From the NCBI GenBank assembly GCA_900547555.1, contig URHG01000001.1, positions 53,628 to 117,627 on the forward strand: DNA of 64,000 bases, in the 5' to 3' direction. Below, in pieces: positions 21,376 to 63,726 of this stretch. Origin of the DNA: an uncultured Porphyromonadaceae bacterium (GTDB taxonomy: Bacteria; Bacteroidota; Bacteroidia; Bacteroidales; UBA11471). A model generated the notes under the pieces. That model did no database searches, was not told the DNA's origin, and saw only the letters and a list, made by a program, of their open reading frames with translations. Every line of letters starts with the position of its first letter. Within the stretch, counting starts at the first letter, position 1. A program made the translations under genes and the position numbers.

Positions 21376-24249
21376 TTAGTATTTCATCATACGGGCCGTA
21401 CGGGTCGTATCGTCGGCAATAACAACACAGTTATAAACACCGGCGGGCAGGTCTTCGAGACCTTTGACTTCGATCATACCGCCCGAAATGGTCAAATCGT
21501 TACTGTAAACAAGAGCACCCGACAGACTGTAAATCTCAACCTTAGCGGTTCCTATGCTCTGCGGGAGAGCCACCGTGAAGCAGTCTTTGAACGGATTTGG
21601 ATAAACAGCTACGTCTTCATTTTCCGAAGCGGTAACTTCTTCGATAGCCGTTACACCATGCTCGTACTTCGACTTGATTTCGAGTTCGGTGAGGGCTTCG
21701 TTGTAAAGCGTAACTTCATCGATAGATCCGATAAAGGGAGCATCGAAATTGATATTGACATTACCGATAACAAACGCTTCGTCTCCATCAATAGCACCGG
21801 TAGCATCACTGGCCGAGGCTTTGAGTTCACCGTCGATGTACAGAAGCAGTTTTTGATTCTCAACATCGCGCACGGCAACTACATGATGCCAGTTTCCGTC
21901 GAAATAAGAGGTTGCGGAAACCTCTGCCAAAGATTTGGTTACATCATCATCTACACCGAAATAAAGAACTCCTTTCTTATATTCGAGACCGAACCATTTA
22001 CCGGTATTTCCGTTGCTGCCCGATGCATGACTACCTTTGTGAAGGAGATAACGGCTCTGCGAGCTGTTACCGGCAGTAGACTTGAACCACAACTCATACG
22101 AGAAAGGTGCACTCTCAAATACGATTTCGTCGTACGAAGGAACGATCATACCGTCGGTCGTATTGGCAGCATCGAAAGATATGGCACCGTTGATTTTGCC
22201 TTCACCCCATACCGGAACATACGAACCGTAAGGAGTGGCATCATTGGCCATGATTTCTTCATCGGTAGGCGCATTTACAGCCATAGAACCCGATGTTTCG
22301 TCAAATGAGAAATAAGCGACTTTCGTACGCACGGGTTCTTGTCCGGTCGTGAAACTCCACACCTCTCCCTGCGTTCTGCCGTAAGTATTCTTCGCATCGA
22401 TTCTCCAATAATAGGTGGTATTCTGCTCTACGTCCATCGTATATGACTTACTACGTATCGTAGCTACGGAATCGAGCTGGTCGGGCGACGTTCCCACATA
22501 TACGTAGTAATAGGGACGGCCCGTTGTTTCGTTCGAGAATTTAAGCGTTACCGTCGTATATTCGGCAATCGTTTCACCATTAGCGGGAACAGGATCGGTC
22601 GAGAGGTCGGGTTCGCCCGGAGCACCTTTGGTGCGGAAAGAGAGCGTAGCGGGAAGCGACTCCATATCGCCGGTAAAGGTAGTCAAACGCAGCGTATAAT
22701 TTGTTTTCTCCGAGAGACCTTTTATCGTACAGGAAGTTGCATCGGTATTGATCGTATTCACGAGCTGATATTCTCCGCCCTCAGGCATCACTTCCACGCG
22801 GATTTTCGCTCCGGCAGCTTTTTCGTGGCACTCAAAAGCCACCGTAATACTGTCGGTACCCAACGACTTGGCAAGAATCTCTACCGGATACTTCAAGAAA
22901 GCAACAGGCGATGCAGGTATGCTGTTGATATAATTTTCGATATTCAGGTAACCATTGGGAGCCACCATCACGGCATCGGAAGCATCATTGGGATTCAATT
23001 CGTTAGCTTCTTCCCACCAATCGGGCATACCATCGTAATCGCTATCCACAGGCTTCGGGGCATTGTAGATATTTCCCACACCGTTTACCAATCCCAATAC
23101 TGATTCACTCGAAATAATCACGCCTTTATTTCCCAAAGAACGCAACTCATCGATGACGTATTCATCGACTTCATCCCGATCGGGCAAACAGGCACCGACA
23201 CTATCAACGACCCATTGATATGCCTCCTCGGCCGTCATCGACATCGAAGCAATAGGAGCATGAGGATGTTCCGAAGGATATTCTTCGCTTTGCAACAAGT
23301 CTTCAAACGAATCAACACGGGTCGCACGGGCGAAATCGTTCTCGTCCATATCACGACCGTTAAGGACACCATCCCTCGACATATCGGTTTTGTTTCCGCG
23401 CTGGTAAACAGTTGTCAACTGATTTCCAGAACCGACCCCATTTCCACCGGAATTCGGACCTTGGATAAAATAGTTAGACTGTACATCGGCCCAAATACGT
23501 CCTTCGGAATCACCACCGAGGTTGTAACCGCCACCGCTACCCCAGTTATACACCACATTGTTGATGTACTGGTTAAGACCTTTCACCTTATGGTTACGGG
23601 TATTATTATCGGCATAGAGATTCCGGTAAAGCGTTACCCCACCCACAGTATTGGTCGGTTGGCAAAGACCACCGGCCGAGTGAGGCAAAAGGCCTTGGCT
23701 CATAATGGTTTTTTGAATTGTGATATTTCCTACTCCACCGTTCTTACCATCGGAATTGATCGAGAAAGTCTCATCTTTTCCCCATGAAATGGAACAATGG
23801 TCAAATATCATATTGGAACCGTTGGCTATACCAGCGGCATCATTTTGTCCGCGACCACTCATTCCCATACGGATACGCAGATAACGGACGATAATATCGC
23901 TGGCTCCGGAAAACGAAGTGCGTTCTCCGTAAATGACAATACCACTACCGGGAGCCGTCTGCCCGGCAATTGTCAGATTCTTGGAAAACACAAGAGGACT
24001 TTTAATTCGAATTACACCTGCTACATCAAAAACAACAATGCGATTAGGTTGACTGACAGCATCACGTAAAGATCCCTTTCCCGAGTCATTGAGATTGGTT
24101 ACATGGTACACTGTCGGATTTTCTCCAGCGCGCGCACCTCGTGCAAAACGGCCGTAACCTTCCGCTCCCGGGAATGCAATCAGCTCATCGGCCACCGCCC
24201 CGGCAAGGCAAGCAAATGCCATACAAAATGTTAGTAAAATTCTTTTCAT
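21376..24249 (-). CDS. PL1-type pectate lyase with FN3-like and LamG/ConA-like modules and a T9SS C-terminal sorting domain
   Basis: 957 aa. The N-terminus AFPGAEGYGRFARGARAG..VYHVTNLNDSGKGSLRDAV..IAGQTAPG..VRYLRIRMG is pectate-lyase-like. A Ca-binding-like DSDYDGMPDWWE motif follows. The C-terminus VAVYPNPFKDCFTV...GVYNCVVIADD is a Por/T9SS tail. Confidence 0.8.
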   Translation of the reverse strand: MKRILLTFCMAFACLAGAVADELIAFPGAEGYGRFARGARAGENPTVYHVTNLNDSGKGSLRDAVSQPNRIVVFDVAGVIRIKSPLVFSKNLTIAGQTAPGSGIVIYGERTSFSGASDIIVRYLRIRMGMSGRGQNDAAGIANGSNMIFDHCSISWGKDETFSINSDGKNGGVGNITIQKTIMSQGLLPHSAGGLCQPTNTVGGVTLYRNLYADNNTRNHKVKGLNQYINNVVYNWGSGGGYNLGGDSEGRIWADVQSNYFIQGPNSGGNGVGSGNQLTTVYQRGNKTDMSRDGVLNGRDMDENDFARATRVDSFEDLLQSEEYPSEHPHAPIASMSMTAEEAYQWVVDSVGACLPDRDEVDEYVIDELRSLGNKGVIISSESVLGLVNGVGNIYNAPKPVDSDYDGMPDWWEEANELNPNDASDAVMVAPNGYLNIENYINSIPASPVAFLKYPVEILAKSLGTDSITVAFECHEKAAGAKIRVEVMPEGGEYQLVNTINTDATSCTIKGLSEKTNYTLRLTTFTGDMESLPATLSFRTKGAPGEPDLSTDPVPANGETIAEYTTVTLKFSNETTGRPYYYVYVGTSPDQLDSVATIRSKSYTMDVEQNTTYYWRIDAKNTYGRTQGEVWSFTTGQEPVRTKVAYFSFDETSGSMAVNAPTDEEIMANDATPYGSYVPVWGEGKINGAISFDAANTTDGMIVPSYDEIVFESAPFSYELWFKSTAGNSSQSRYLLHKGSHASGSNGNTGKWFGLEYKKGVLYFGVDDDVTKSLAEVSATSYFDGNWHHVVAVRDVENQKLLLYIDGELKASASDATGAIDGDEAFVIGNVNINFDAPFIGSIDEVTLYNEALTELEIKSKYEHGVTAIEEVTASENEDVAVYPNPFKDCFTVALPQSIGTAKVEIYSLSGALVYSNDLTISGGMIEVKGLEDLPAGVYNCVVIADDTTRTARMMKY

Positions 24250-24557
24250 GTGTATAAGTTATTTTAGGTTTATAACATCTCAAATACAAATAATCCCCGA
24301 CACTCTCCCTTTTTCCGGAGAAAATGTCCGATGAAGGCAATTCTTATGACGGATAAAATGAAAATTCAAAGGATTGTTTTCATGGTACATCAAAGAATAC
24401 GAGGCATTAGGGGTTACAAATAAACAAAATATTGCCTCTCGACTGACTGCAAATATTGATAGATAAACTTCCTTAAATGATTTTATCGAATTATCGAACC
24501 TTCTATTATTCCGAAATGTCGAGTATCGAAAAGCACAAACGAAACAAGTATTTTCAA

Positions 24558-25786
24558 GAGATTCCTCACATACGTTCGGAATGACGCGCATGTCATTTTG
24601 GCGACCGCAGAGAGGAAGAATCTCTTACCAAAGTACACGTCATTCTGAGGGGTATTGACCCCGAAGAATCTCGTTCATAAATGGATTGGGATTCCTCACA
24701 TGCGTTCGGAATGACATTTAGGTTACAGCCCTAAAAAGCATCCGTCATTCTGAATGAAACGAAGTGAAATGAAGAATCTCAACCAATAAAGAGTTGGGGC
24801 TTCCTCACACTCAGCCCTTCGGTTCGGAATGCACGTATGTCATTCTGAGACGCGAAGTGTCGAAGAATCTCCTGCCAAATAGGGCGTATGGTATGAGATC
24901 TCTCACATGCGTTCGAGATGACAGTAATGTCATTCTGACGACCGCAGGGAGGAAGAATCTCTTGGATAGGAACATTGAGGGAGAGATGCTACACTACCGT
25001 TCAGCACAACAAGGTATTCTTTTTGGGATTCCTCGCGTACGCTCGGAATGACATTTGGGTTGCCGTTCTCAAAGTATCTGTCATTCTGAATGGAACGAAG
25101 TGTAATGAAGAATCTCTACCAATAGAGCGTGAGAGATTCCTCGTCGGCCTTACGCCCTCGCTCGGAATGACATTCGACAGTCATACGGAGCAGTCGAAGT
25201 ATCTCCGACTCGTAACATTCTATCACTCTACGCGCAAATGCCAATTTCATGTAGGCGAAGGCGTGCCCGCATTTATCGGGCTGCCGGGAGCAAGGGAGAA
25301 GACGGAAAGAGGGCGAGGACTGTTTGAGCGGAGCGAGTTCCGCAGCACCCGTCGGCGACCGATGCGGAAGGCAGGAATACCCGATAACCGGCGGGCGACC
25401 TTTCTGGGTTACTTCTTTGCGGCGGGAAAGAAGTAACAGACAACTGTCATTCTGAACATAGCGTGAGCGGAGTGAAGAATCCCAAACAAAAAGCATGAGA
25501 TTCCTCACATGCGTTCGGAATGACATTTGGGTTGCCGTTCTCAAAGTATCTGTCATTCTGAATAGAACAAAGTGTAATGAAGAATCTCAACCAATAAAGA
25601 GTCAAGGATTCCTCACACTCAGCCTATCGGCTTCGGTTCGGAATGCACGTATGTCATTCTGACGACCGTAAGGGAGGAAGAATCTCTTGGATAGGAGCGT
25701 TGAGGGTGAGATGCTTCACTGCCGTTCAGCATGACAAGGTATTCTTTTTGGGATTCCTCAATGCGTTTGGAATGAAATCGGAATGA
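24558..25786. repeat. Array 1 of a REP/BIME-like imperfect-palindrome family (~20 copies, alternating orientation)
   Basis: The forward form is GAGATTCCTCACATGCGTTCGGAATGAC (24558-24585, 24688-24715, 25497-25524). The reverse form is GTCATTCTGA-N11-17-GAAGAATCTC (24592-24624, 24744-24780, 25080-25116, 25552-25588). There is no credible ORF. Confidence 0.9.
25228..25445 (+). repeat. ~220-bp structured repeat ('element B'), copy 1
   Basis: It aligns by eye with 37754-37980 and with the reverse complement of 31625-31852. It contains GCCCGC-AT-TTATCGGG ... CCCGATAA-N-GCGGGC long-range pairing and the hairpin GTTACTTCTTT-GCGGCGGG-AAAGAAGTAAC (25408-25437). The 5' ~40 nt are more diverged than in the other copies. 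Confidence 0.85.
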
Positions 25787-25794
25787 GAACAAAA

Positions 25795-25822
25795 AAGAGG
25801 GGCGCTTTAAAGTGCCCCTCTT
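25795..25822 (-). terminator. Terminator after the T9SS-cargo gene
   Basis: AAGAGGGGC-GCTTTAAAGT-GCCCCTCTT. On the minus strand TTTTTTG follows. Confidence 0.7.
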
Positions 25823-25845
25823 CTATATTATTAACAATCGTGAGA

Positions 25846-28155
25846 TTACTCAACGATGAGTTTTTGCGTATAAGCTTTGTCGGCCGTCGTTACGCGAACA
25901 TAATAGATACCGGCTTGCAAATCCGAAACATCGAGCGTCAAAGTCGATTCAGCGGTAGCAACCGATTTCACCAACTGAGCAGCCGAGTTGTACACAGCCA
26001 CATTTGCCACTTCACCGGCAGCTACGGCAATCGTAACGTTTCCACCCCGAGCAGGATTGGGATATACCTGCAAGTTGCTATTGTCGGCATCTACGCTTTC
26101 GATAGCATCGGGTTCTGCCTCACCATTACCGGCTTTCGTACATTTGGCCACCAACTTGTATTGAGCAGGAGCAATAACGGTCGTTACATTTTCGCCTTTG
26201 ATCGGATCATATTCCGTTTTGGTCTCAGCAGGAACTTTCACAGATTTCAATTCGAACGTTGCGCCATTGAAAGCATCGTCTACGATCAAATTGAAACAGG
26301 TCTCATCGGTTACGCCATCAACGTAGCTTCTGAGGGTATCAGCTTGCATGAGGACGATTTCATCGCCTTCGGCTACTGACCATTTGTCGCGCGGAGCAAG
26401 TTTGATGTTGATCTTTGCTTCTGTTCCTGCTTCGGTATCGCTGTAAACGCGGATTTCATTTTCAACCATTACTACGTCGTGTTTATCTTTGTCGATGATT
26501 TCGAACTCGATATTTGCACCGTTGTAGAGGAGCAAATTAGCGGCCGTACCGGCGGTTCTTTCGAAAATGGTATTTCCTTGTTGTTCCGTACTTACAGGTC
26601 CATTGCTTTTACCTGTTTTATAAGATATTTTAGCAAATGACGCATCAATCCGCAAGGTATCTACGGCATCGCTACCGGGCTGCATCGTACCATAGAGAGC
26701 GGTGTGGCCACCGATCGTTCCGAACCCGCCGATTGTTCCGGTCGGGCGACAAGTTACCGTATTGTTGCTCGACACTTTATTTTGTCCCGTAGCCGTCGTA
26801 TTTTGAGGATCGGGGTTATTGAAGAGCACGCGGCCTTCCCATACTTCTACACCCAAGAATATTTGATTTTCATTCGAAGTAATATAGTAGGTTCCTTTTC
26901 CTTCCTTGATAAGACCGACACCACATTCTCTATAAGGACCCCAACCCGTATCATTGGCACCTTTTACACTAGCTGTAAATACACCATCGAGATAACCATC
27001 TGCATCATCGCCGAAAAGAATTACCCCCTGAGGATTTGAAGCCTTATAATATCCTCTCATCGCAGAAGTCTTTTTCATATTTAAACTTTTCACATGCAAA
27101 AGAGCTACATTGGGAGCACCCCCAGCCGACTCAAATGCAATAGAAACGTCTTCACCTATCGTAACATCACTATTGGAAAGATCATAGAACAAACTATCGA
27201 TAAGATTTCCGTTTTTAGCTTTGTTCAACCACACATTGTAAAGCAAAGAGTCCCCCTCGGTTTTAGCATAAAATGCTTTCGAGGCAGCAGTTCCTTTTGC
27301 CGACTCCGCCGGGAAAATTATACCGCTAAAATCAGACTCGCTGTCATCAGATTTCAAAATATTGAATTTGCCAGTAAATCCCGAGAAATCGGCAGGATGA
27401 GTATTTTTTGAACCAGACAAGAATACACGTTCACCCCGAGAATAAACATTTATAGTACCGTTTCCGGTAACATAAATATTGGTATCACTCGTCATATAGG
27501 TATAACGAGAGGGATAAAGATTCCACGTAGAACCGTCGGTAATGTTGACATCGGCACCGAAAGCAGCATAGTCGCTGCCCATACTACCTAAATCGACAGT
27601 ACCCTCACCGTCAATAGTAACTTTCTTACCGAAAACAGTCGTAGCAATAGACGATTTCGACTTACGAGCTACCGTACCGCCTTTTATAACGGTTCCGCCG
27701 GGCAAGTTATTTACAACATCGGTGTAGAGCGTTCCGTCGCCAAACTTAATCAAAGCGGCATCGGGTGCTGCGGCAGCCGCATTGAAAGCTACCGTTTCCG
27801 ACTCGGGACTGAACGTATACGTAACTTTGGAGTTATCGACTTGGATTCCGCCGAGTTCCAATCCGGTTCCTACCGTAATCGTGGGAGAATCGGTATTCAT
27901 ACCGAAGTCGGGATTGGTGAGAACGTTATACACCTCGTCATTGAACAATGCGATATTGCCACTCACGAATGATTGAGAATTCGGATCATCGGGATTCTCA
28001 TCAACCCCGATCCAAGTCTGGAAAGTCGTGGTCCACGGGAACAGCAACCCTTCCGCGTCCATATCATTCACTGCTGCCCATTTCTGAGTAGTAGTTTGCG
28101 CAGACATACCTGCCGAAGCAAGAACAGCCGCTACTAAAAAAGTAATTTTCTTCAT
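25846..28155 (-). CDS. Secreted protein of unknown function with a T9SS C-terminal sorting domain (G/T/N/V-rich, possibly beta-helical)
   Basis: 769 aa with a signal peptide (MKKITFLVAAVLASAGMSAQ). The C-terminus LQVYPNPARGGNVTI...AGIYYVRVTTADKAYTQKLIVE is a Por/T9SS tail. I recognise no catalytic motif. It has its own terminator at 25795-25822. Confidence 0.7.
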   Translation of the reverse strand: MKKITFLVAAVLASAGMSAQTTTQKWAAVNDMDAEGLLFPWTTTFQTWIGVDENPDDPNSQSFVSGNIALFNDEVYNVLTNPDFGMNTDSPTITVGTGLELGGIQVDNSKVTYTFSPESETVAFNAAAAAPDAALIKFGDGTLYTDVVNNLPGGTVIKGGTVARKSKSSIATTVFGKKVTIDGEGTVDLGSMGSDYAAFGADVNITDGSTWNLYPSRYTYMTSDTNIYVTGNGTINVYSRGERVFLSGSKNTHPADFSGFTGKFNILKSDDSESDFSGIIFPAESAKGTAASKAFYAKTEGDSLLYNVWLNKAKNGNLIDSLFYDLSNSDVTIGEDVSIAFESAGGAPNVALLHVKSLNMKKTSAMRGYYKASNPQGVILFGDDADGYLDGVFTASVKGANDTGWGPYRECGVGLIKEGKGTYYITSNENQIFLGVEVWEGRVLFNNPDPQNTTATGQNKVSSNNTVTCRPTGTIGGFGTIGGHTALYGTMQPGSDAVDTLRIDASFAKISYKTGKSNGPVSTEQQGNTIFERTAGTAANLLLYNGANIEFEIIDKDKHDVVMVENEIRVYSDTEAGTEAKINIKLAPRDKWSVAEGDEIVLMQADTLRSYVDGVTDETCFNLIVDDAFNGATFELKSVKVPAETKTEYDPIKGENVTTVIAPAQYKLVAKCTKAGNGEAEPDAIESVDADNSNLQVYPNPARGGNVTIAVAAGEVANVAVYNSAAQLVKSVATAESTLTLDVSDLQAGIYYVRVTTADKAYTQKLIVE

Positions 28156-31257: not shown

Positions 31258-32304
31258 GAGATTCTTCGGGGTTAACACCCCCTCAGAATGACACTCCTGT
31301 CATCTCGAACGAAAGTGAGAGATCTTATACGAAATGCACTATTTGGCAGGAGATTCTTCGACACTTCGCGTCTCAGAATGACATCACATTGCAGGGACAG
31401 TACCACATGTCAAAAGATTCTTCCTTCCTGCGGTCGACAGAATGACATACGTGTCATTCCGAACCGACGCCAAGCCGAGTGCCGTGCAGAACATTTCTGT
31501 TCATGCACAGCCGAGGCGCGAAGGAGGAAAACATAGTTAACCGAAGCGATAGGCTGAGTGTGAGGAATCCCCGACTCTCTATTGGTTGAGATTCTTCATT
31601 ACACTTCGTTTCATTCAGAATGACAGTTGTCTGTTACTTCTTTCCCGCCGCAAAGAAGTAACCAAGAAAGGTCGCCCGCTTGTTATCGGGTATTCCCGCC
31701 CTCTGCTTCGGTCGCTGTCGGGGGCTGCGGAACTCGCTCCGCTCAAACACTCCTCGCCCTCTTTCCGCCTTCTCCCTCGCTCCCGGCAGCCCGATAAATG
31801 CGGACATGCTTGTGCTCCATGCAATTGGCGTTTGTTCGTAAAGCGACAAGGCATCACCGGTCGGAGGTGTTCCTCTGTTACTCAAATGTCATTTCGAACC
31901 GAGGTCGAAGACCGAGTGTGAGGAATCCCAATCTATTTATGTGGGGTATAGATTCTTCATTTCGCTTGCGCTGCATTCAGAATGATAGCGTTTTGGTGAT
32001 AGCCTAATGTCATTCCGAACGCATGTGAGGAATCTCATGCCATACACGCACTTCGTAGGAGATTCTTCGACGCTCCGCATCTCAGAATGACATCGTACTG
32101 GTAGGGCAGTACTGTATGGAAAGAGAATCTTCACTTCACTGACGTTCCGTTCAGAATGACAATTGTACTGCAACGGCAGCATTGTGTGGCAAGGGATTCT
32201 TCCTCCCTGCGGTTGTCAGAATGACATACGTTTTTAGGGTAAGATTTTTCACTATTGTTCAGAATGACAATTATGTGGTATGAGGGAATGCGCTTCGTTC
32301 GGAA
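31258..32304. repeat. Array 2 of the same palindrome family (~13 copies), overall inverted relative to arrays 1, 3 and 4
   Basis: Examples are GAGATTCTTCGGGGTTAACACCCCCTCAGAATGAC starting at 31258 and, further on, GTCATTCCGAACGCATGTGAGGAATCTC. The array ends 9 nt from the queF stop codon. Confidence 0.9.
31625..31852 (-). repeat. Element B, copy 2 (reverse orientation)
   Basis: The reverse complement reads ...GCCTTGTCGCTTTACGAACAAACGCCAATTGCATGG...GTCCGCATTTATCGGG...CCCGATAACAAGCGGGCG...GGTTACTTCTTTGCGGCGGGAAAGAAGTAACAGACAACT. Confidence 0.88.
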
Positions 32305-32312
32305 AAGTAAGT

Positions 32313-33227
32313 TTACTGACGGGGCGATTTTATGGCAAGGCGGTCGAAGCGGACAATATGCGGACAAAAACGGTCGATAAGTTCTTTCCTGCTGGCTCTC
32401 ACGGGATTGATGTCGATACCGCCCCGACGTGTGTAAAAGGCCATGACCAGCAATTTCTCGGGCGAAAAATGCGATTGTAAGGCTTCATAAATCATTTCGA
32501 CCACCTCTTCATGGAAATGGTTCTCATCGCGGAAAGAGACGATATACCGCAGCAAGGCATCGACCGAGGGCAATCGGTCGCCCCGCATGTGGAGGTAAAG
32601 ATCGCCCCAGTCGGGCTGGGACGTTATCTTACAACGGCTGCGCAGCAGATCGGTCATACCCGTCAGTACACCGCTACCGGTGCGGTTGTCGTGCAGCAGA
32701 TCGACATCTTCCTTGTAAGACGCGAGCGGGGCGGACGAGAGTTCATCGACGCCCCAATACGCCCATTCTACCGGCGGTTCGCATACACAGCCCGGCGATG
32801 TTACCGTATGTCGCGCGGCTTCACGAGGCGTTTCCGCAACGACTTCGACCCGGGTTTCGAGCAGAGCCGAGAGGTCGTGTGCTATCGTGGCCGACAAGAA
32901 ACCGGCTACTTCGGCGGTCGTAGCCCCGCAATGGGACATGTTGAATGCATTCAAGTATAGTTTCAGCGATTTGCTTTCGACAATATAACGGCTTTCGCAG
33001 GGATAGAGCAGTCGCATGATGAAGTTGACCGGCGCACCGACATCGGTGAGTGCGCTCACTTCGTATGCGTTCCACAGGTCGAAACCGGTGAACGGCAAAT
33101 GAGCTTCGTCGATGTGATGAGCCGTCCGGTTTCCGGCACGGTCCACACGGACAAGAATATCAGGAGAATAACGATCGGGATAAGCCACTTGGCGACCTAA
33201 AACGTGATGCGTCGAATTGGAGTTCAT
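32313..33227 (-). CDS. queF: NADPH-dependent 7-cyano-7-deazaguanine (preQ0) reductase, bimodular type
   Basis: 304 aa, collinear with E. coli QueF. Matching blocks are ESKSLKLYLNAFN, ITSQPDWGDL, LLRYIVSFRDENHFHE and YTRRGGIDINP. Confidence 0.9.
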   Translation of the reverse strand: MNSNSTHHVLGRQVAYPDRYSPDILVRVDRAGNRTAHHIDEAHLPFTGFDLWNAYEVSALTDVGAPVNFIMRLLYPCESRYIVESKSLKLYLNAFNMSHCGATTAEVAGFLSATIAHDLSALLETRVEVVAETPREAARHTVTSPGCVCEPPVEWAYWGVDELSSAPLASYKEDVDLLHDNRTGSGVLTGMTDLLRSRCKITSQPDWGDLYLHMRGDRLPSVDALLRYIVSFRDENHFHEEVVEMIYEALQSHFSPEKLLVMAFYTRRGGIDINPVRASRKELIDRFCPHIVRFDRLAIKSPRQ

Positions 33228-33238
33228 AGGCGGTATTT

Positions 33239-34459
33239 TTAAGGCAGGAGCAACGAACTGTCTCCATAACTGAGAAATCGGAAATCGTGCGCCAGTGCAT
33301 AGTCATAGACCTCGTGCCAACGGTCGCCGATAAGTGCCGACACGAGCAGCAGCAACGTGCTGCGCGGCTGGTGGAAATTGGTAACGAGCCCTTGCACGAT
33401 GTGCCAACGATAACCCGGAACGATGATGATGCGGGTTGCCGATACGAGCCGGTCGAGATTCCGACGGTCGAGATAGTCGACGAGAGCGAGCAAGGCCTCC
33501 CGGGGGGAGACGTCGGGCGTACCGTCATAGGGTTGCCACTGCTCCACAACGAGCCGGTCGGCTGTTGCTTCGGGGTCATGTACGAGCGTACGTCCCATAT
33601 AGTAAAGGCTTTCGAGCGTACGCACCGACGTGGTACCTACGGCAATGATGCGCCGGGTCGTGGAGGCAAGAGCCGACAGTGTCTCACGGGAAACCGAGAT
33701 ATACTCGGTATGCATCTCGTGGCCGGCGATGGTTTTGCTTTTTACCGGCTTGAATGTCCCTGCCCCGACATGCAAGGTAAGTTCGAGACGGGGGATTCCT
33801 TTTTTCTGCAAAGCCGTAAAGACTTCGGGCGTGAAGTGCAGGCCGGCCGTAGGAGCGGCGACCGAGCCTTCGACATGGGAATAGACCGTCTGATACGTCT
33901 CTTTGTCGCTCTCTTCGGTCGCCCGGTTGAGATAAGGCGGTATGGGCAGTTCGCCGAAGGCTTCGAGCAGGGAGGCAAAGGTAATGCCCTCGTTGTCCCA
34001 CGAGAAACGTATTTCGTGAGTCTCGCTGTCGGTGTGGTCCTGCCGTTCGGCATGGAGGGTTACTTCCCGTCCTTCGACCGACAGAGTTCGGGACAGCCGT
34101 CCGGTTTTCCATTTACGCAAGTTCCCCACCAAGCAACGCCATACGCAGCTTTCCGTCGCTTGGAACGACATCAGGTAGTCGCACGGATCCAGCGGTTCGA
34201 GACAGAAAATCTCGATGAGCGCGCCGGTCTCTTTCCGGAAATGCAGACGGGCCTGAATCACACGGGTGTTGTTACACACGAGCAGAGAATCGTCCGGCAG
34301 CAATTCGGGCAATCGGTTGAATGTCGATTCCGAAATCTGTCCGCTTCTATAAAACAGCAATTTCGATGCGTCGCGACGGGCGAGAGGATATTTGGCGATT
34401 CGTTCGTCGGGCAACGGGTAGTCATACTCGTCGATGCGGATATCTTGTGGTTTTTGCAT
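33239..34459 (-). CDS. queA: S-adenosylmethionine:tRNA ribosyltransferase-isomerase
   Basis: The track ORF begins at a non-ATG codon. I trimmed it to the ATG giving MQKPQDIRIDEYDYPLPDERIAKYPL. CNNTRVIQARL, AAPTAGLHFT and VGAGTF are QueA blocks. Confidence 0.92.
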   Translation of the reverse strand: MQKPQDIRIDEYDYPLPDERIAKYPLARRDASKLLFYRSGQISESTFNRLPELLPDDSLLVCNNTRVIQARLHFRKETGALIEIFCLEPLDPCDYLMSFQATESCVWRCLVGNLRKWKTGRLSRTLSVEGREVTLHAERQDHTDSETHEIRFSWDNEGITFASLLEAFGELPIPPYLNRATEESDKETYQTVYSHVEGSVAAPTAGLHFTPEVFTALQKKGIPRLELTLHVGAGTFKPVKSKTIAGHEMHTEYISVSRETLSALASTTRRIIAVGTTSVRTLESLYYMGRTLVHDPEATADRLVVEQWQPYDGTPDVSPREALLALVDYLDRRNLDRLVSATRIIIVPGYRWHIVQGLVTNFHQPRSTLLLLVSALIGDRWHEVYDYALAHDFRFLSYGDSSLLLP

Positions 34460-34512
34460 ATACAATGTTGAATATCTCTGCAAAAATAAGCATCTTTGTG
34501 CTATAAAACCGA

Positions 34513-35592
34513 ATGATTATGGTAAAAGTAGGAGATAAAGTGCGCTTCCTCAACGCTGTGGGCGGAGGAATCGTGCGCCGCATAGACCACGACGTGGTAC
34601 TCGTCGAGGAGGAAGACGGATTCGAGACACCGGTACTTGCCCGCGAATGTGTCGTCATAGAGAGCGGACGCAAACAGGATAACGGTGTCGTCCCGACCGA
34701 TAAGCAGGAAATCGCCCGGCACGCGGCGAGACCGGTCGTTCCCCGACCGGCAGACGATGACGACGAACCCGAACTGCCGCTCGTTGAGACCCGGAAGGGT
34801 GAACGAATCAGCCTCTATTTGGCGTTCGTTCCCGAATCGTGCAGTCGGTTGGGTTCGACGACATTCGATGCTTATCTCATCAACGACAGTAATTATTACC
34901 TCGATTATCTGTATGCCGGCTCGGACGAGACGGGCGAGTGGACGATGTACAGCCGGGGAACGGTGGAACCCAATGTACAGGTGCATCTCGAAAGTTTCGG
35001 TCAGGACTCGGTCAACCGTTTTGGGCGTATCTCGGTGCAAGCCGTTGCTTACAAACGCGGGAAATCCTATGTCTGCAAAGAACCTGTCTCGACTGTTTTA
35101 CGCATCGATCCCGTGAAATTTTATAAATTACACACTTTCGGCACGAGTGAATTTTTCGAGGAGAAAGCGTGGGTGCTCCCGCTTGTCGAGAACGATCTTC
35201 CCGTCATGGATATTCCGGTCGACGCCAAGTCGCTCGAAAGAGCCATGCAGGAAAAGACCGTGCCGCAGCCGCAAACTCCCAAGCCCGCCCGGCACAAGCA
35301 GCCCAAAGAAGGCCCGGTCGAGGTCGACTTGCACATACACGAGTTGGTCGATACGACCGCCGGAATGAGCAACGCCGATATGCTGCAATTGCAGTTGCAG
35401 ACATTTCGCGATACGCTCGACCGATACAAGGGAGAGAAAGGCCGGAAAATCGTGTTTATTCACGGTAAAGGCGACGGCGTGTTGCGCCGAGCCATACTCG
35501 AAGAGTTGCAACGGAAATACAAAAATTACGAGTATCAGGACGCCTCGTTCCGGGAATACGGTTTCGGGGCGACGCAGGTAACGATACGTTAG
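34513..35592 (+). CDS. DUF2027-like protein with a C-terminal Smr (small MutS-related) domain
   Basis: 359 aa. The C-terminus VDLHIHELV...KIVFIHGKGDGVLRRAILEEL is the Smr signature. Confidence 0.75.
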   Translation: MIMVKVGDKVRFLNAVGGGIVRRIDHDVVLVEEEDGFETPVLARECVVIESGRKQDNGVVPTDKQEIARHAARPVVPRPADDDDEPELPLVETRKGERISLYLAFVPESCSRLGSTTFDAYLINDSNYYLDYLYAGSDETGEWTMYSRGTVEPNVQVHLESFGQDSVNRFGRISVQAVAYKRGKSYVCKEPVSTVLRIDPVKFYKLHTFGTSEFFEEKAWVLPLVENDLPVMDIPVDAKSLERAMQEKTVPQPQTPKPARHKQPKEGPVEVDLHIHELVDTTAGMSNADMLQLQLQTFRDTLDRYKGEKGRKIVFIHGKGDGVLRRAILEELQRKYKNYEYQDASFREYGFGATQVTIR

Positions 35593-35694
35593 GAAGCGTT
35601 TCGGCCGACGCAGGGCGATGCGACCGTCGTACTCACGAATGCGGGCGCGGCATGAAATCTTGCATCGGCAGAAGAAAATAACTGCGGAATGTCG

Positions 35695-35702
35695 TATATT
35701 TG
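35695..35702 (+). promoter_or_regulatory. Candidate -7 box (TATATTTG) for hisS
   Basis: TAnnTTTG match 31 nt upstream of ATG 35733. It overlaps the TTG start used by the ORF track. Confidence 0.45.
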
Positions 35703-35732
35703 CAATATCATCTTACATATCGAAAAAATTAC

Positions 35733-37097
35733 ATGGCAACAAAACCTTCCATACCCAAAGGAACCAGAGACTTTTCGCCCGAGGAGATGGCGAAACGCAA
35801 CTATATTTTCAACACGATACGCGAAGTATTTCACCTTTTCGGCTTCCAGCAGATAGAGACGCCCGCTATGGAAAATCTCTCCACGCTCATGGGGAAATAC
35901 GGCGAAGAGGGAGACAAATTGCTTTTCAAGGTATTGAACTCGGGCGATTTCCTTTCCGATGTTTCCGACGAGGAACTGACGGAGCGGAATACCAACCGGC
36001 TGGCATCGAAATTTTGCGAGAAAGGTTTGCGCTACGACCTTACCGTGCCGTTTGCCCGCTTCGTGGTGATGCACCGGGGAGAGCTTTCATTCCCTTTCAA
36101 ACGCTACCAGATACAACCCGTATGGCGGGCCGACCGGCCGCAGAAGGGACGCTACCGCGAGTTTTTCCAATGCGATGCCGATGTTGTCGGGTCGGACTCC
36201 CTGCTGAACGAAGTCGAACTGTTGCGCCTTGTCGATGAGGTGTTCTCCCGATTCGGCATACGGGTGGCCGTGAAACTCAACAATCGGAAAATACTCGGCG
36301 GCATTGCCGAAATCATCGGTGCACCCGAGAAAATCGTCGATATTACCGTTGCCATCGATAAACTCGATAAAATAGGTCTCGACAACGTCAATGCGGAATT
36401 GCGCGAAAAAGGCCTCGATGAGACGGCTGTCGCCCGGTTGCAACCCATTATCCTGCTGCAAGGCGATAACCGTGAGAAACTCGCCACATTGCGCACGCAA
36501 CTGGCTGCATCGGAAATCGGAATAAAAGGGATAGAAGAGCTGGAATATATTCTCGATAAGATAGAGAAATCGCCCTTGAAAGCGACACTCGAAATAGACC
36601 TGACACTGGCGCGCGGCCTCAACTACTACACGGGTGCCATCGTAGAGGTGAAAGCACTCGATGTAACGATAGGCAGCATTACCGGCGGCGGCCGTTACGA
36701 CAACCTGACGGGCGTATTCGGCATGCCGGGTGTTTCGGGCGTGGGTATCTCGTTCGGCGCCGATCGTATTTACGACGTACTCAACCAGCTCGATTTGTAC
36801 CCGTCGGACTCACTGTATTCCACCCAGATATTGTTTGTCAACTTCGGAGAAAAAGAGGCGGAGGCCTGCCTCGATTATACGGCCCGCTTGCGGGCATCGG
36901 GTATCCGTGTCGAACTTTACCCCGAGACAGGAAAGCTCAAAAAACAGATGGGTTATGCCGATGCCAAAAAGATTCCTTTCGTTGCCCTTGTGGGTGAAGA
37001 TGAAATTTCGTCGGGAAAAATTACCGTCAAAGACATGTCGGCGGGTACACAGGAGCAGTTATCGATAGAAGAAATCGTTTCCCGCTTGAAACCATGA
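35733..37097 (+). CDS. hisS: Histidine--tRNA ligase
   Basis: Trimmed to [14 protein letters not shown] (ATG at 35733). The track start at 35700 is TTG and overlaps a TATATTTG promoter box. Class II motifs are present: FRYERPQ-like [18 protein letters not shown] and GGGRYDNL. Confidence 0.93.
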
Positions 37098-37615
37098 ATT
37101 TAAAAATGGAAAAAGAACTGGTTATCGCTCCGGCTTCCGAATCGGACATACCCGAAATACGGCTCATGGCCCGAGAGACTTTTTACCCGACCTATCGGGA
37201 TATTTTGTCGCCCGAGCAGCTCGATTACATGTATGAGTGGATGTACTCCGAAGAAAGCCTGCTGCAACAGATGCACACGGGGCATCGGTTCTTTATTGCC
37301 CGAGACGGTTCGGGTAACGGGGTGGGATATGTTTCAATCGAACAACAGGGCGAACGATTGGTGCATTTGCAAAAAATCTATGTCCGTCCCGACAAGCAGA
37401 AACTTCATGTAGGGAGATCATTGATGGAAAAAGCATTCGATGAAGCGAAGAAACTATTCCCCGACGGACACGGTCGGGTGGAGCTGAATGTCAACAGAAA
37501 AAATCCGGCGCTCTCTTTTTATCGGCACATGGGTATGACTATTGCTTCAAGCGGTGATTTCGACATAGGAAACGGATATTTCATGAATGATTACATCATA
37601 GCGATCGATTTTTGA
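37094..37615 (+). CDS. GNAT family N-acetyltransferase
   Basis: 173 aa. The acetyl-CoA motif A-like [22 protein letters not shown] is present. Its ATG overlaps the hisS stop (ATGA). Confidence 0.8.
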
Positions 37616-37631
37616 ATGGCCTGTTTTATAA

Positions 37632-37667
37632 AGCGAGGGCTGTATCAGTTTCGATACAGCCCTCGCT
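37632..37667 (+). terminator. Terminator after hisS-GNAT
   Basis: AGCGAGGGCTGTATC-AGTTTC-GATACAGCCCTCGCT is a perfect 15-bp stem followed by CGCTTTTG. Confidence 0.7.
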
Positions 37668-37703
37668 CGCTTTTGCCATTGGAGGAAAAACATGCAACAC
37701 TCG

Positions 37704-38332
37704 TTGACATTCTGACGACCGTAGGAAGGAAGTATTCCTTGTCGAATGGTGCTGCCTTGTCGCTTTACGAACAAATTCCAATTGCATGGGACAGCAAGAT
37801 GCCCGCATTTATCGGGCCGCACGGAGCGAGGGAGAAGGTGGGAAGAGGGCGAGGACTGTTTGAGCGTAGCGAGTTCCGCAGCCCCGACGACGACCGAAGC
37901 GGAGGGCGGGAATACCCGATAACAAGCGGGCGACCTTTCTTGGTAACTTCTTTGCGGCGGGAAAGAAGTTACAGACAACTGTCATTCTGAACGGAACATC
38001 AGTGTAGTGAAGAATCTCTTTCCATATAGTGCCGCCCTACCAACGCTATGTCATTCTGAGATGCGGAGCGTCGAAGAATCTCTTACAAAGTGCGCGTATG
38101 GCATGAGATCCTCATTTGCATTCAAGATGACAGCAGAGATTCCTCGTCAGGCTTGTGCCCTCGCTCGGAATGACATCGCATGTCATTCTGAATGCAGCGT
38201 AAGCGAAATGAAGAATCTCTACCAAAGAACGAAAAAAGAGAGATTCCTCGCATGTGCTCGGAATGACATTGGAGTTAGGGTGGAGATAGCAGTTTGTAAA
38301 TGATGAGATTCCTTATATATGATCGGAATGAC
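37704..38332. repeat. Array 3 of the same palindrome family (~8 copies)
   Basis: Examples are GTCATTCTGAACGGAACATCAGTGTAGTGAAGAATCTC (37981-38018), then GAGATTCCTCGCATGTGCTCGGAATGAC and GAGATTCCTTATATATGATCGGAATGAC near 38240-38332. It lies between the convergent GNAT and GT2 genes. Confidence 0.9.
37754..37980 (+). repeat. Element B, copy 3
   Basis: GCCTTGTCGCTTTACGAACAAATTCCAATTGCATGG...GCCCGCATTTATCGGG (37801-37816) pairs with CCCGATAA/GCGGGC (37915-37931). The terminal hairpin GTAACTTCTTT-GCGGCGGG-AAAGAAGTTAC lies at 37943-37972. Confidence 0.88.
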
Positions 38333-43506: not shown

Positions 43507-43932
43507 CGAGAAGTAAATGAAGATTCTTACTCGATTATTCGGGAGATTGCCACTGTCATTCAGACAACCGTAGGGAAGAAGAATCTCTTTCCATACAGTA
43601 CTGCCCTACCAACGCTATGTCATTCTGAGGAGTGAAACACCGAAGAATATCCTATGAAGTGCGCGTATGGTATGAGATCTTTCTCTTGCATTCGAGATGA
43701 CAGTAGAGATTCCTCACATACGTTCGGAATGACATTGGAAGGGTAAGGGTGGTAAAAACAAAACGGGTGCGTAATTCGCACCCGTTTTTATAGAACTCCT
43801 ACACCGACGGGTTTGGAATGACAGAGTATTCTTTTAGGGATTCCTCGTCGGGTTTATGCCCTTGCTCGGAATGGCAACGTAACGGGAGGAAAAAATTCCC
43901 GTTAGCATACAGAATGACATTCGAGAATCTTG
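43507..43932. repeat. Array 4 of the same palindrome family (~7 copies, some truncated)
   Basis: Examples are GTCATTCAGACAACCGTAGGGAAGAAGAATCTC (43555-43587), GTCATTCTGAGGAGTGAAACACCGAAGAATATC and GAGATTCCTCACATACGTTCGGAATGAC. It lies in the divergent MATE / nucleoside phosphorylase intergenic region. Confidence 0.85.
43762..43789. terminator. Orphan terminator-like hairpin inside array 4
   Basis: AACGGGTGCG-TAATT-CGCACCCGTT has an A-run upstream and TTT downstream. It is not downstream of any annotated gene, because both neighbours diverge from it. Confidence 0.4.
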
Positions 43933-63652: not shown

Positions 63653-63726
63653 GGCGGGGTAGCTCAGTTGGTTAGAGCGTCGGATTCATAACCCGGAGGT
63701 CACGAGTTCAATTCTCGTCCCCGCTA
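63653..63726 (+). tRNA. tRNA with CAT anticodon (elongator tRNA-Met, or tRNA-Ile2 if lysidine-modified)
   Basis: The 74-nt cloverleaf reads GGCGGGG TA GCTC AGTTGGTTA GAGC G TCGGA TTCATAA CCCGG AGGTC ACGAG TTCAATT CTCGT CCCCGCT A. It has a G1-U72 wobble and an A31/C39 mismatch, and no encoded CCA. It is not initiator-like, since there is no C1:A72. Confidence 0.88.

Follow-up and report, generated by a model that had tools for sequence, protein, structure and literature searches.

What are the small palindromes that fill a 1.2-kb gap between two genes of an uncultured gut Bacteroidales bacterium, and which enzyme might act on them? The gap lies at 24558-25786 of the window, by which we mean the whole stretch of 64,000 nucleotides that was analysed (GenBank assembly GCA_900547555.1, contig URHG01000001.1), and its content is called array 1 hereafter. 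An earlier note, made from the sequence alone, had likened these palindromes to the bacterial interspersed mosaic elements (BIMEs) that repetitive extragenic palindromic (REP) sequences form in enterobacteria. On the evidence presented here, array 1 probably consists of hairpin repeats of the CGTC/TGTC-tagged REP superfamily, the same elements as the Ssn-type hairpins called NTS or Ssn-related motifs (SRMs). The hairpin family itself is already described; new here are the gut Bacteroidales host and a stem with GA..GA dinucleotides.

The repeat unit and its two subtypes

With a relaxed pattern (GTCATTCYGA-N4-30-GARGAATCTC, at most two substitutions per half), array 1 resolves into 20 distinct units between 24558 and 25787. 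Their consensus is (T/C)GTC-A-YNYY-GA-[mini-hairpin]-GA-RRNR-T-C, in which the GA..GA dinucleotides that enclose the mini-hairpin are candidate tandem G.A pairs. The tag is unpaired and leads into a stem of 5 bp, and the palindrome is followed at once by a C. The 10-mer GTCATTCYGA occurs 30 times in the window, as opposed to 0.38 times expected from dinucleotide shuffles and 3 times in the richest shuffle, and the strict architecture GTC-S5-GA-N4-36-GA-rc(S5)-C is present 28 times in the window and 0 times in ten shuffles. The earlier note had reported some 20 alternating copies of a small palindrome and had named a shuffled-sequence control as a check. That control, run here, places the copies far beyond chance, and 20 units were indeed found.

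The forward and reverse forms listed in the note are real and represent two subtypes of one oriented unit. Type A, found on the plus strand in array 1, reads GTCATTCTGA-(13-18 nt)-GAAGAATCTC and measures 33-38 nt. Type B, on the minus strand in array 1, reads GTCATTCCGA-ACGCATGT-GAGGAATCTC and measures 28 nt, or 37-43 nt with a bigger inner hairpin. The half-sites ATTCT/AGAAT of type A and ATTCC/GGAAT of type B differ by a compensated stem pair, T-A in A and C-G in B. Wherever the two subtypes share an array (arrays 1-3, listed below), they point in opposite directions, without exception among the 16 strict ATTCT and 9 strict ATTCC units of the window. This strict alternation of two subtypes, as with Y and Z REPs, upholds the parallel with BIMEs. 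The type B hairpin has nine stem positions, including two G.A, and a 4-nt loop, and the inner hairpins of type A and long B units are larger. Non-degenerate window units begin with GTC, several degenerate ones do not, and window units end in ..AATC.

The repeating block of array 1 is a minus-strand type B unit facing a plus-strand type A unit, tag to tag, with spacers of 5-8 or 27-28 nt on the tag side and of 13-23 nt on the tail side. Larger modules are duplicated as well (25024-25142 and 25496-25614 at 89%; 24946-25034 and 25671-25759 at 92%), so that both segmental duplications pointed out from the sequence were recovered. On either strand, neighbouring inverted units can form long hairpins with imperfect pairing, at an only moderate advantage over shuffles (z scores of -0.5 to -3.9). 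The pairing of neighbours that had been predicted thus holds, but not as a clean stem of 25 bp, since these hairpins comprise 7-10 plus 8-11 bp with mismatches. A CRISPR array was rejected, as the units alternate in orientation and the spacers, of 5-63 nt, are themselves repeated.

Covariation, spread and the link to Ssn-like genes

Pairing of the hairpin is under selection. In ~230 fetched loci, searched with eight 5' and eight 3' half-stem variants in every combination, 528 of 546 half-site pairs are complementary across the eight stem variants. The inner closing pair of the type B 28-mer is A-T in 91 cases and G-C in 24, with 3 mismatches. Features that the search did not impose are conserved too: the tag is TGTC in 447 units and CGTC in 142, and GA..GA is found 551 times, against at most 30 for any other combination in that orientation. 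The 3-nt tail is CTC (479) or CCC (79), and stem pairs 1-2 are A-T and T-A in nearly all units. The units also avoid genes, with 16% of 321 units inside long open reading frames (ORFs) compared with 79% of random positions.

Nor is the family restricted to the Bacteroidota, to whose annotations the earlier note had tied the motif. The type B 28-mer GTCATTCCGAACGYATGTGAGGAATCTC recurs nearly unchanged in more than a dozen phyla, in unrelated flanks. In a scan of one genome per species with a specific type B pattern, the matches listed include Gemmatimonadota, Hydrogenedentota, Bacteroidota, Clostridia, Chlorobiota, Chloroflexota, Melainabacteria and Saccharibacteria, as well as Alpha-, Beta-, Gamma- and Deltaproteobacteria, among them Rickettsiales and Micavibrio. 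Units are also carried by at least 120 viral DNA stretches in IMG/VR, in whose viral contigs no Ssn-like gene was confirmed. Neither PLSDB plasmids nor INPHARED phages had a BLASTN match to the array at 1e-5.

Some of these genomes embed the unit in other repeats. The chromosome of Betaproteobacteria bacterium UKL13-2 (1704001-1712000) has eight tandem 291-bp repeats, each with an identical type B 28-mer, and a Rhodocyclaceae metagenome-assembled genome (MAG) holds a related copy of this repeat. In seven loci of Rickettsiales MAG-70 (L130, L150, L163, L193, L194, L202 and L223), the type B 28-mer heads a longer repeat (…GAATCTC atgcc(y)ggat…gtatgccac). A parS-like palindrome, gcttcacgtgaagcat, often stands before this longer repeat, and the layout recalls Rickettsia palindromic elements. 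Rabbit-gut Clostridia MAGs (L142, L144, L161 and L230) have a second, unrelated palindromic family (CCCACCCCTCAAGGGGTGGG-like) beside the units in the same intergenic regions. A UvrC-like ORF of 478 aa with a GIY-YIG domain, in a MAG labelled Nanoarchaeota, has a type B unit within it (L227, 3326-3351). Intragenic copies in repair genes were reported for other REPs by Di Nocera et al. (PMC3733652).

A candidate partner for the units is suggested by work on Neisseria, where the 28-nt NTS, CGTCATTCCCGCGMAVGCGGGAATCYRG, and SRM hairpins flank ssnA (Chenal et al. 2025, Nat Commun 16:2388, PMC11893778). For both binding and cutting by the product of ssnA, a single-domain GIY-YIG nuclease of 94 aa, the hairpin must be single-stranded DNA (ssDNA), and the enzyme does not bind RNA (PMC11893778). 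The three bases before the palindrome of the NTS are needed for cleavage, and the C that follows it, the most critical base, is needed for binding (PMC11893778).

Similar genes adjoin the units described here. The 108 unit-selected genome blocks contain six GIY-YIG ORFs, fragments included, and in four cases the gene is at most 120 nt away from a unit. GIY-YIG genes within this distance of an identical type B 28-mer belong to a Melainabacteria MAG, in which inverted copies of the 28-mer bracket the gene, a Clostridia MAG, a Bacteroidaceae MAG and Dysgonomonas sp. 25, where the gene is at about 183.8-184.2 kb of scaffold5. The flanking proteins are single-domain, of 93-100 aa (PF01541, E 1e-15; PDB UPF0213 proteins 1zg2 and 1ywl). 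The reverse test started from 80 metagenome loci picked solely for encoding an Ssn-like GIY-YIG protein of ~100 aa. A strict unit is found at most 300 bp from the gene in 51 of them (64%), and on both sides in 32 (40%). Unit density amounts to 2.05 per kb up to 300 bp from the gene and to at most 0.2 per kb past 600 bp, a 10-fold difference. In the commonest bracket a '+' unit precedes the gene and a '-' unit follows it, at a distance of ~32-36 nt, with tags pointing outward. Two examples come from gut Bacteroidales. In human-gut contigs, one ssn cassette sits between arginine-biosynthesis (arg) genes. Another ssn gene has in front of it a tandem array with a 117-bp period and two alternating subtypes, present in three to four copies or in one depending on the strain.

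Other routes to a partner were tried. BLASTP clustering of ORFs near units, a guilt-by-association approach, gave redundant phage genes only, and DUF559 nucleases were set aside as the partner with only 2 genes near units. DUF559 genes occur in two unit-bearing loci (L200 and L192), ~380 nt from a unit in L200. In the comparison of loci L332 (7013-7411) and L330 (6175-6989), one strain has a DUF559 (Vsr-like endonuclease) gene in an intergenic region that holds units only in the others. DUF559 may be a second small nuclease family sharing these sites.

By extension from the Neisseria work, the repeats would act as ssDNA. On a strand exposed in conjugative entry, transformation or replication, the hairpin would form and be bound, and a single-domain GIY-YIG Ssn nuclease of ~100 aa would then cut just upstream of the tag. 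The arrays would be built from tag-to-tag B/A pairs, through insertion of such pairs and through their duplication in tandem or as segments. In this reading the arrays are lineage-specific intergenic fillers downstream of terminators and also act as substrates for rearrangement. By analogy, Ssn cleavage may take place in this organism, the units may have spread in the way outlined, and incoming DNA may be gated near the polysaccharide locus.

It is tempting to go further, although we consider the following extension doubtful. GA..GA units might constitute a distinct pan-bacterial SRM branch missed by SRM searches, with its own Ssn clade and a near-invariant 28-nt type B site. In gut Bacteroidales, the opposite-strand subtypes might give each strand a cleavable site, and the arrays would then be strand-specific gates on conjugative ssDNA round polysaccharide-utilisation loci, as well as inversion hot spots. 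If this were true, the near-invariance of the type B site in more than a dozen phyla would imply frequent horizontal transfer of the nuclease-site pair.

Several points weigh against assigning array 1 to the Ssn type. No GIY-YIG gene is found in the 64-kb window or in ~40 kb of same- or sister-species DNA outside the window span; as the reachable DNA of the species has none, a cognate nuclease in this genome is assumed. In the reverse test, no strict unit was near the gene in 29 of the 80 loci. The flanked protein of the published system belongs to cd10448 (GIY-YIG_unchar_3), and the flanking genes found here were typed by Pfam GIY-YIG and PDB UPF0213 matches. The published SRM search string, HGTCWYN(0-2)YYVSBRHN(0-5)WNVSBRGN(0-2)RNCYNB, is a search aid derived from 29 genomes rather than a functional definition (PMC11893778), and it has 0 matches on either strand of the window. 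It misses the window units because it expects a G+C-rich continuous stem, whereas GA..GA violates its S, B and R positions. Likewise, cutting would be extrapolated from the continuous stem of the NTS type to the GA..GA type of the window. With standard DNA parameters, the folding energy of single units is -2 to -7 kcal/mol, in most cases not beyond that of shuffles, compared with -8.9 for the NTS; these energies being weak, the argument for a hairpin rests on covariation and not on stability. Lastly, a GIY-YIG nuclease without strand-transfer chemistry would account poorly for the copying of units to new sites.

Array layout, lineage history and rival explanations

Both genes that border array 1 are on the minus strand. 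The stop of the first (25846-28155), which codes for a 769-aa protein with a type IX secretion system (T9SS) sorting tail, borders the upstream edge of the array. Downstream of the array, the second gene (21376-24249) codes for a 957-aa protein that combines a pectate-lyase N-terminus (PDB 9buj, 7e-29) with fn3 and laminin-G domains and a T9SS tail. The context given in the earlier note, a T9SS-cargo terminator followed by the start of a pectate-lyase gene, is borne out by the hairpin at 25795-25822 and by the match to 9buj. The features of array 1, its edge and the other arrays of the window are as follows.

24558-24585, minus strand: type B unit GTCATTCCGAACGTATGTGAGGAATCTC
24592-24624, plus strand: type A unit with a degenerate 5' half, GTCATTTTGG..GAAGAATCTC, tag to tag with the 24558-24585 unit across a 6-nt spacer
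24639-24672, plus strand: type A unit, inner hairpin GGGG..CCCC
24688-24715, minus strand: type B unit
24744-24780, plus strand: type A unit, 37 nt, ACGAAGT core
24797-24833, minus strand: long B unit with degenerate ends, TGCATTCC..GGAAGCCC
24839-24871, plus strand: type A unit, inner hairpin GACGCGAAGTGTC
24895-24922, minus strand: unit with the compensated stem variant ATCTC/GAGAT
24929-24961, plus strand: type A unit, core CGACCGCAGGGAGG
25025-25052, minus strand: type B unit, inner part GCGTACGC
25080-25116, plus strand: type A unit, 37 nt
25133-25171, minus strand: long B unit, 39 nt, inner hairpin GGGCGTAAGGCC
25180-25205, plus strand: degenerate unit GTCATACGGA..GAAGTATCTC
25223-25445, no strand assigned: GC-rich repeat, not a unit
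25446-25483, plus strand: type A unit, 38 nt
25497-25524, minus strand: type B unit, exactly the cross-phylum 28-mer
25552-25588, plus strand: type A unit, 37 nt
25605-25647, minus strand: long B unit with degenerate ends
25653-25686, plus strand: type A unit, core CGACCGTAAGGGAGG
25708-25735, minus strand: unit with the compensated stem variant ATGCT/AGCAT
25750-25776, minus strand: degenerate type B unit TTCATTCCAAACGCATTGAGGAATCCC
25795-25822, no strand assigned: terminator-like bidirectional hairpin of the 769-aa gene, just past its stop, at the upstream edge of array 1 and outside the array
31258-32268: array 2, type A on the minus strand and type B on the plus strand, with a GC-rich copy at 31588-31858
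37748-38332: array 3, between convergent genes, a GC-rich copy followed by ~6 units
43555-43875: array 4, ~5 units

The GC-rich repeat spans ~230-270 nt (about 225 in array 1) and is present at 25223-25445, 31588-31858 and 37748-37975, in copies that are ~90% identical with one 1-nt indel. Each copy is directly followed by a type A unit and ends in a hairpin, GTTACTTCTTT..AAAGAAGTAAC, in which array 3 has one compensatory change. It was seen only in loci of this species and of a sister species (81-84% identity), had no Pfam or Rfam match and was absent from IMG/VR viral contigs. In other assemblies it is called as 'genes' of 107-146 aa.

Array 1 itself yields a spurious 146-aa 'gene' call in another assembly, and Pfam has no match for the 153-aa and 146-aa ORFs that cross it. 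At the gathering threshold of Rfam, a tRNA gene (63653-63726) is the sole match in the whole window, and relaxing the search to E up to 10 gave nothing meaningful in 24200-25900. A full-text search of the literature with strings of the unit sequence returned unrelated primers only.

Comparison of histidyl-tRNA synthetase (HisRS) places the organism in the Barnesiellaceae, near Coprobacter. In relatives at 92, 86, 81 and 80% HisRS identity, the orthologous regions of 21 kb have no units, and the spacer that holds array 3 measures 790 bp in the window versus 68 bp, with only a terminator, in the 92% relative; these relatives are too diverged for base-precise insertion boundaries between filled and empty sites. 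The sister species, at ~91% nucleotide identity, carries units. Two of its strains (L328 and L329, ~270-320) differ by a 10-nt insertion in one inner hairpin, GTCATCCCGAACGC--AAATGAGAGATC versus GTCATCCCGAACCCGCCACAGACGGTGTGAGGGATC, from which it follows that units evolve by inner-hairpin swap; the outer stem changes too.

Rearrangement breakpoints fall within the arrays. A 5.5-kb block of the window (32217-37732), with queF, queA, a DUF2027/Smr gene, hisS and an acetyltransferase gene, is inverted relative to the sister species (6486-11999 in L328/L329), and both breakpoints lie inside arrays 2 and 3. Since the unit-free relative has the gene order of the window, it was the sister lineage that underwent the inversion. 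With respect to the KUMA17-1 assembly of the same species, the window is in addition a mosaic: 43227-31588 corresponds to scaffold_6 (right) and 31834-23553 to scaffold_12 (left), and the switch point, 31588-31834, lies within the GC-rich repeat of array 2. In KUMA17-1, queF is followed by a 789-aa gene, and arabinofuranosidase genes come before the SASA esterase. Either recombination truly took place or one of the assemblies contains a chimeric join.

The units might instead be orphans, i.e. relics of a past invasion without an active partner, whose arrays matter only for recombination, inversions and assembly breaks. We deem this unlikely. The DNA searched for this species has no ssn gene, many array units are degenerate, rearrangement breakpoints fall in arrays, and 19% of genomes with >200 SRMs are without an SsnA homologue (PMC11893778), all of which would suit such relics. 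However, many units have a perfect tag, stem and 3' C, the duplicated modules are 89-92% identical, and among the relatives sampled only this species and its sister have the unit family, a sign of fairly recent activity. Far less probable is the classical REP/BIME scheme, in which units are recognised, cut and spread by a unit-flanked Y1 transposase of IS200/IS605 type, the REP-associated tyrosine transposase (RAYT) or TnpA_REP, encoded once per genome. Its attraction is that the layout is BIME-like, with intergenic units of two subtypes in alternating orientation, and that the core of some type A units resembles atypical hairpins with a CnGA foot found beside class 3 Y1 genes (PMC6006769). 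Yet the foot is (T/C)GTC, not GT[AG]G, and there are 0 Y1 genes in the 108 unit-selected genome blocks. Among 330 sequences (2.6 Mb), 5 Y1 ORFs were found, none adjoining units, the three viral ones being 3-4 kb from a pattern-matched unit; the search combined a regex, Pfam and a small hidden Markov model, whose profile, derived from three class-2.1-like sequences, may overlook class 3. Di Nocera et al. likewise saw no tyrosine transposase flanked by CGTC repeats (PMC3733652). The RAYT-like partner suggested in the earlier note is therefore not what adjoins the units in the sequences searched; GIY-YIG genes are. REPs associated with subclass 2.6 'Bacteroidetes' RAYTs (PMC6006769, Table S1) were also compared, and none resembles the unit.

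An RNA-level element, be it a 3'-end stabiliser, a processing site, an attenuator or a small-RNA precursor for polysaccharide-utilisation genes, could coexist with a role in DNA, but we judge it improbable. Arrays do occur between same-orientation genes, REPs in other bacteria can stabilise mRNA, and GA..GA enclosing a hairpin is a common RNA feature. By contrast, Rfam gave no family for the units even with E relaxed to 10, a strong terminator hairpin precedes the array, and type A units are antisense to the flanking genes in array 1 and sense in array 2. In addition, single-side stem mismatches of the tagged strand are not wobble-biased (2 T.G versus 6 C.A), and the characterised partner enzyme binds ssDNA, not RNA (PMC11893778). 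Finally, an assembly artefact or chance low-complexity sequence is hardly credible. Short-read contigs of this species do end at arrays, and the window departs from another assembly exactly at a repeat. However, array 1 lies inside an 8.3-kb alignment to an independent 280-kb scaffold, at 99.7% identity and without large gaps, and the units, which far outnumber those of shuffles, recur in unrelated assemblies by the hundreds, among them a complete chromosome.

With array 1 read as Ssn-type hairpins, recognition of such repeats should aid the annotation of gut Bacteroidales genomes, because the arrays break assemblies and seed spurious ORFs. Logan contigs, for instance, stop at the array edges of these repeats. 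The arrays mark changes in gene order between close relatives, including at the border of the pectin-utilisation locus. The reach of the Ssn-repeat system is probably underestimated, as the published SRM string misses the GA..GA variant. The near-invariant 28-mer is a ready substrate for testing new Ssn specificities, which is of practical interest because Ssn enzymes are under development as site-specific ssDNA cutters.

Relation to known hairpin systems

The earlier note knew of no formal description of the motif and named Rfam among the places to look for one. The unit is indeed not in Rfam. The claim of novelty nevertheless fails, because the unit fits two published descriptions, the CGTC/TGTC REPs (PMC3733652) and the NTS/SRM hairpins (PMC11893778).

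The more distant parallels are with systems that depend on Y1 transposases. Like the REPs and BIMEs of E. coli, the units form intergenic mosaics of two alternating subtypes, and the partner gene is flanked by its own repeats; in E. coli, however, the tag is GTAG and the partner an HUH Y1 transposase, whereas no Y1 gene is associated here. Quentin et al. (2018, PMC6006769) described atypical REP-like hairpins with a 5' CnGA foot beside class 3 TnpA_Y1 genes in Legionella, Planctomycetes and Acidobacteria. One example in their Table S1, CCGAGCCGCGACCGTAAGGGAGCGGA, found beside class 3 Y1 genes of Legionella and Solibacter (PMC6006769), has a core that resembles CTGACGACCGCAGGGAGG of units 24929-24961 and 25653-25686, the shared core being CGACCGnnAGGGAG. 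More generally, these hairpins and some type A units have a CYGA-G...CGACCGNNAGGGAG core in common, but the former were defined beside Y1 genes. The CnGA-core subfamily, at 0-2 mismatches, was also seen in Chlorobiota, Clostridia and Bacteroidaceae loci.

A closer relative is the Neisseria dRS3 repeat (ATTCCC-N8-GGGAAT), which is the core of the NTS (PMC11893778). The ATTCC/GGAAT of the window unit is common to dRS3, and the differences lie in the stem interior and in the host phylum. In Neisseria, dRS3 forms large intergenic mosaics beside surface-protein genes, linked to recombination, with repeat segments of 50-150 bp between dRS3 copies. The spacers of the window are shorter than these segments, at 5-28 nt, or 13-23 nt on the tail side.

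dRS3 is in turn one member of the CGTC-tagged REP superfamily, with families CGTC-1 to -4, of Di Nocera, De Gregorio and Rocco (2013, BMC Genomics 14:522, PMC3733652). Other members are two Rickettsia RPE families and repeats of Micavibrio, Chlorobi and one Bacteroidetes species, and the hosts include Wolbachia (PMC3733652). These elements have an unpaired CGTC, TGTC or CCTC tag, a stem of 8-9 bp that starts with A-T and T-A, a loop of 4-5 nt and a 3-nt tail that is mostly CCA; inverted dimers are frequent, and grouped elements are rare except in Neisseria and Wolbachia (PMC3733652). The units described here agree with them in the CGTC/TGTC tag, the A-T/T-A start of the stem and the inverted dimers, and our genome scan matched the same host groups (Micavibrio, Rickettsia, Wolbachia, Chlorobi and Bacteroidetes). 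Stem, loop and tail agree in part: type B has 8-9 stem positions, two of them G.A, and a 4-nt loop, and the tail has 3 nt but reads CTC or CCC instead of CCA. The units depart from the published elements in arrays of up to 20 units, and in the inner parts of type A and long B units, which exceed loops of 4-5 nt.

The NTS/SRM hairpins provide the second description. They have a continuous CCGC/GCGG stem, whereas GA..GA surrounds a mini-hairpin here; the strict alternation of two subtypes and the gut Bacteroidales host also set the window apart, the main text of Chenal et al. having no mention of Bacteroid-. The resemblance nonetheless extends from sequence to gene context. Window units share GTC, ATTCC, GGAAT and the C with the NTS, and both systems consist of hairpins of 28-50 nt with an unpaired HGTC tag, in many clustered copies, with a GIY-YIG gene for ~94-100 aa bracketed by inverted copies, in other genomes in our case. 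In the published survey, SRMs were found near 71% of genes and on both sides of 42% (PMC11893778), to which the 64% and 40% obtained here with strict units come close.

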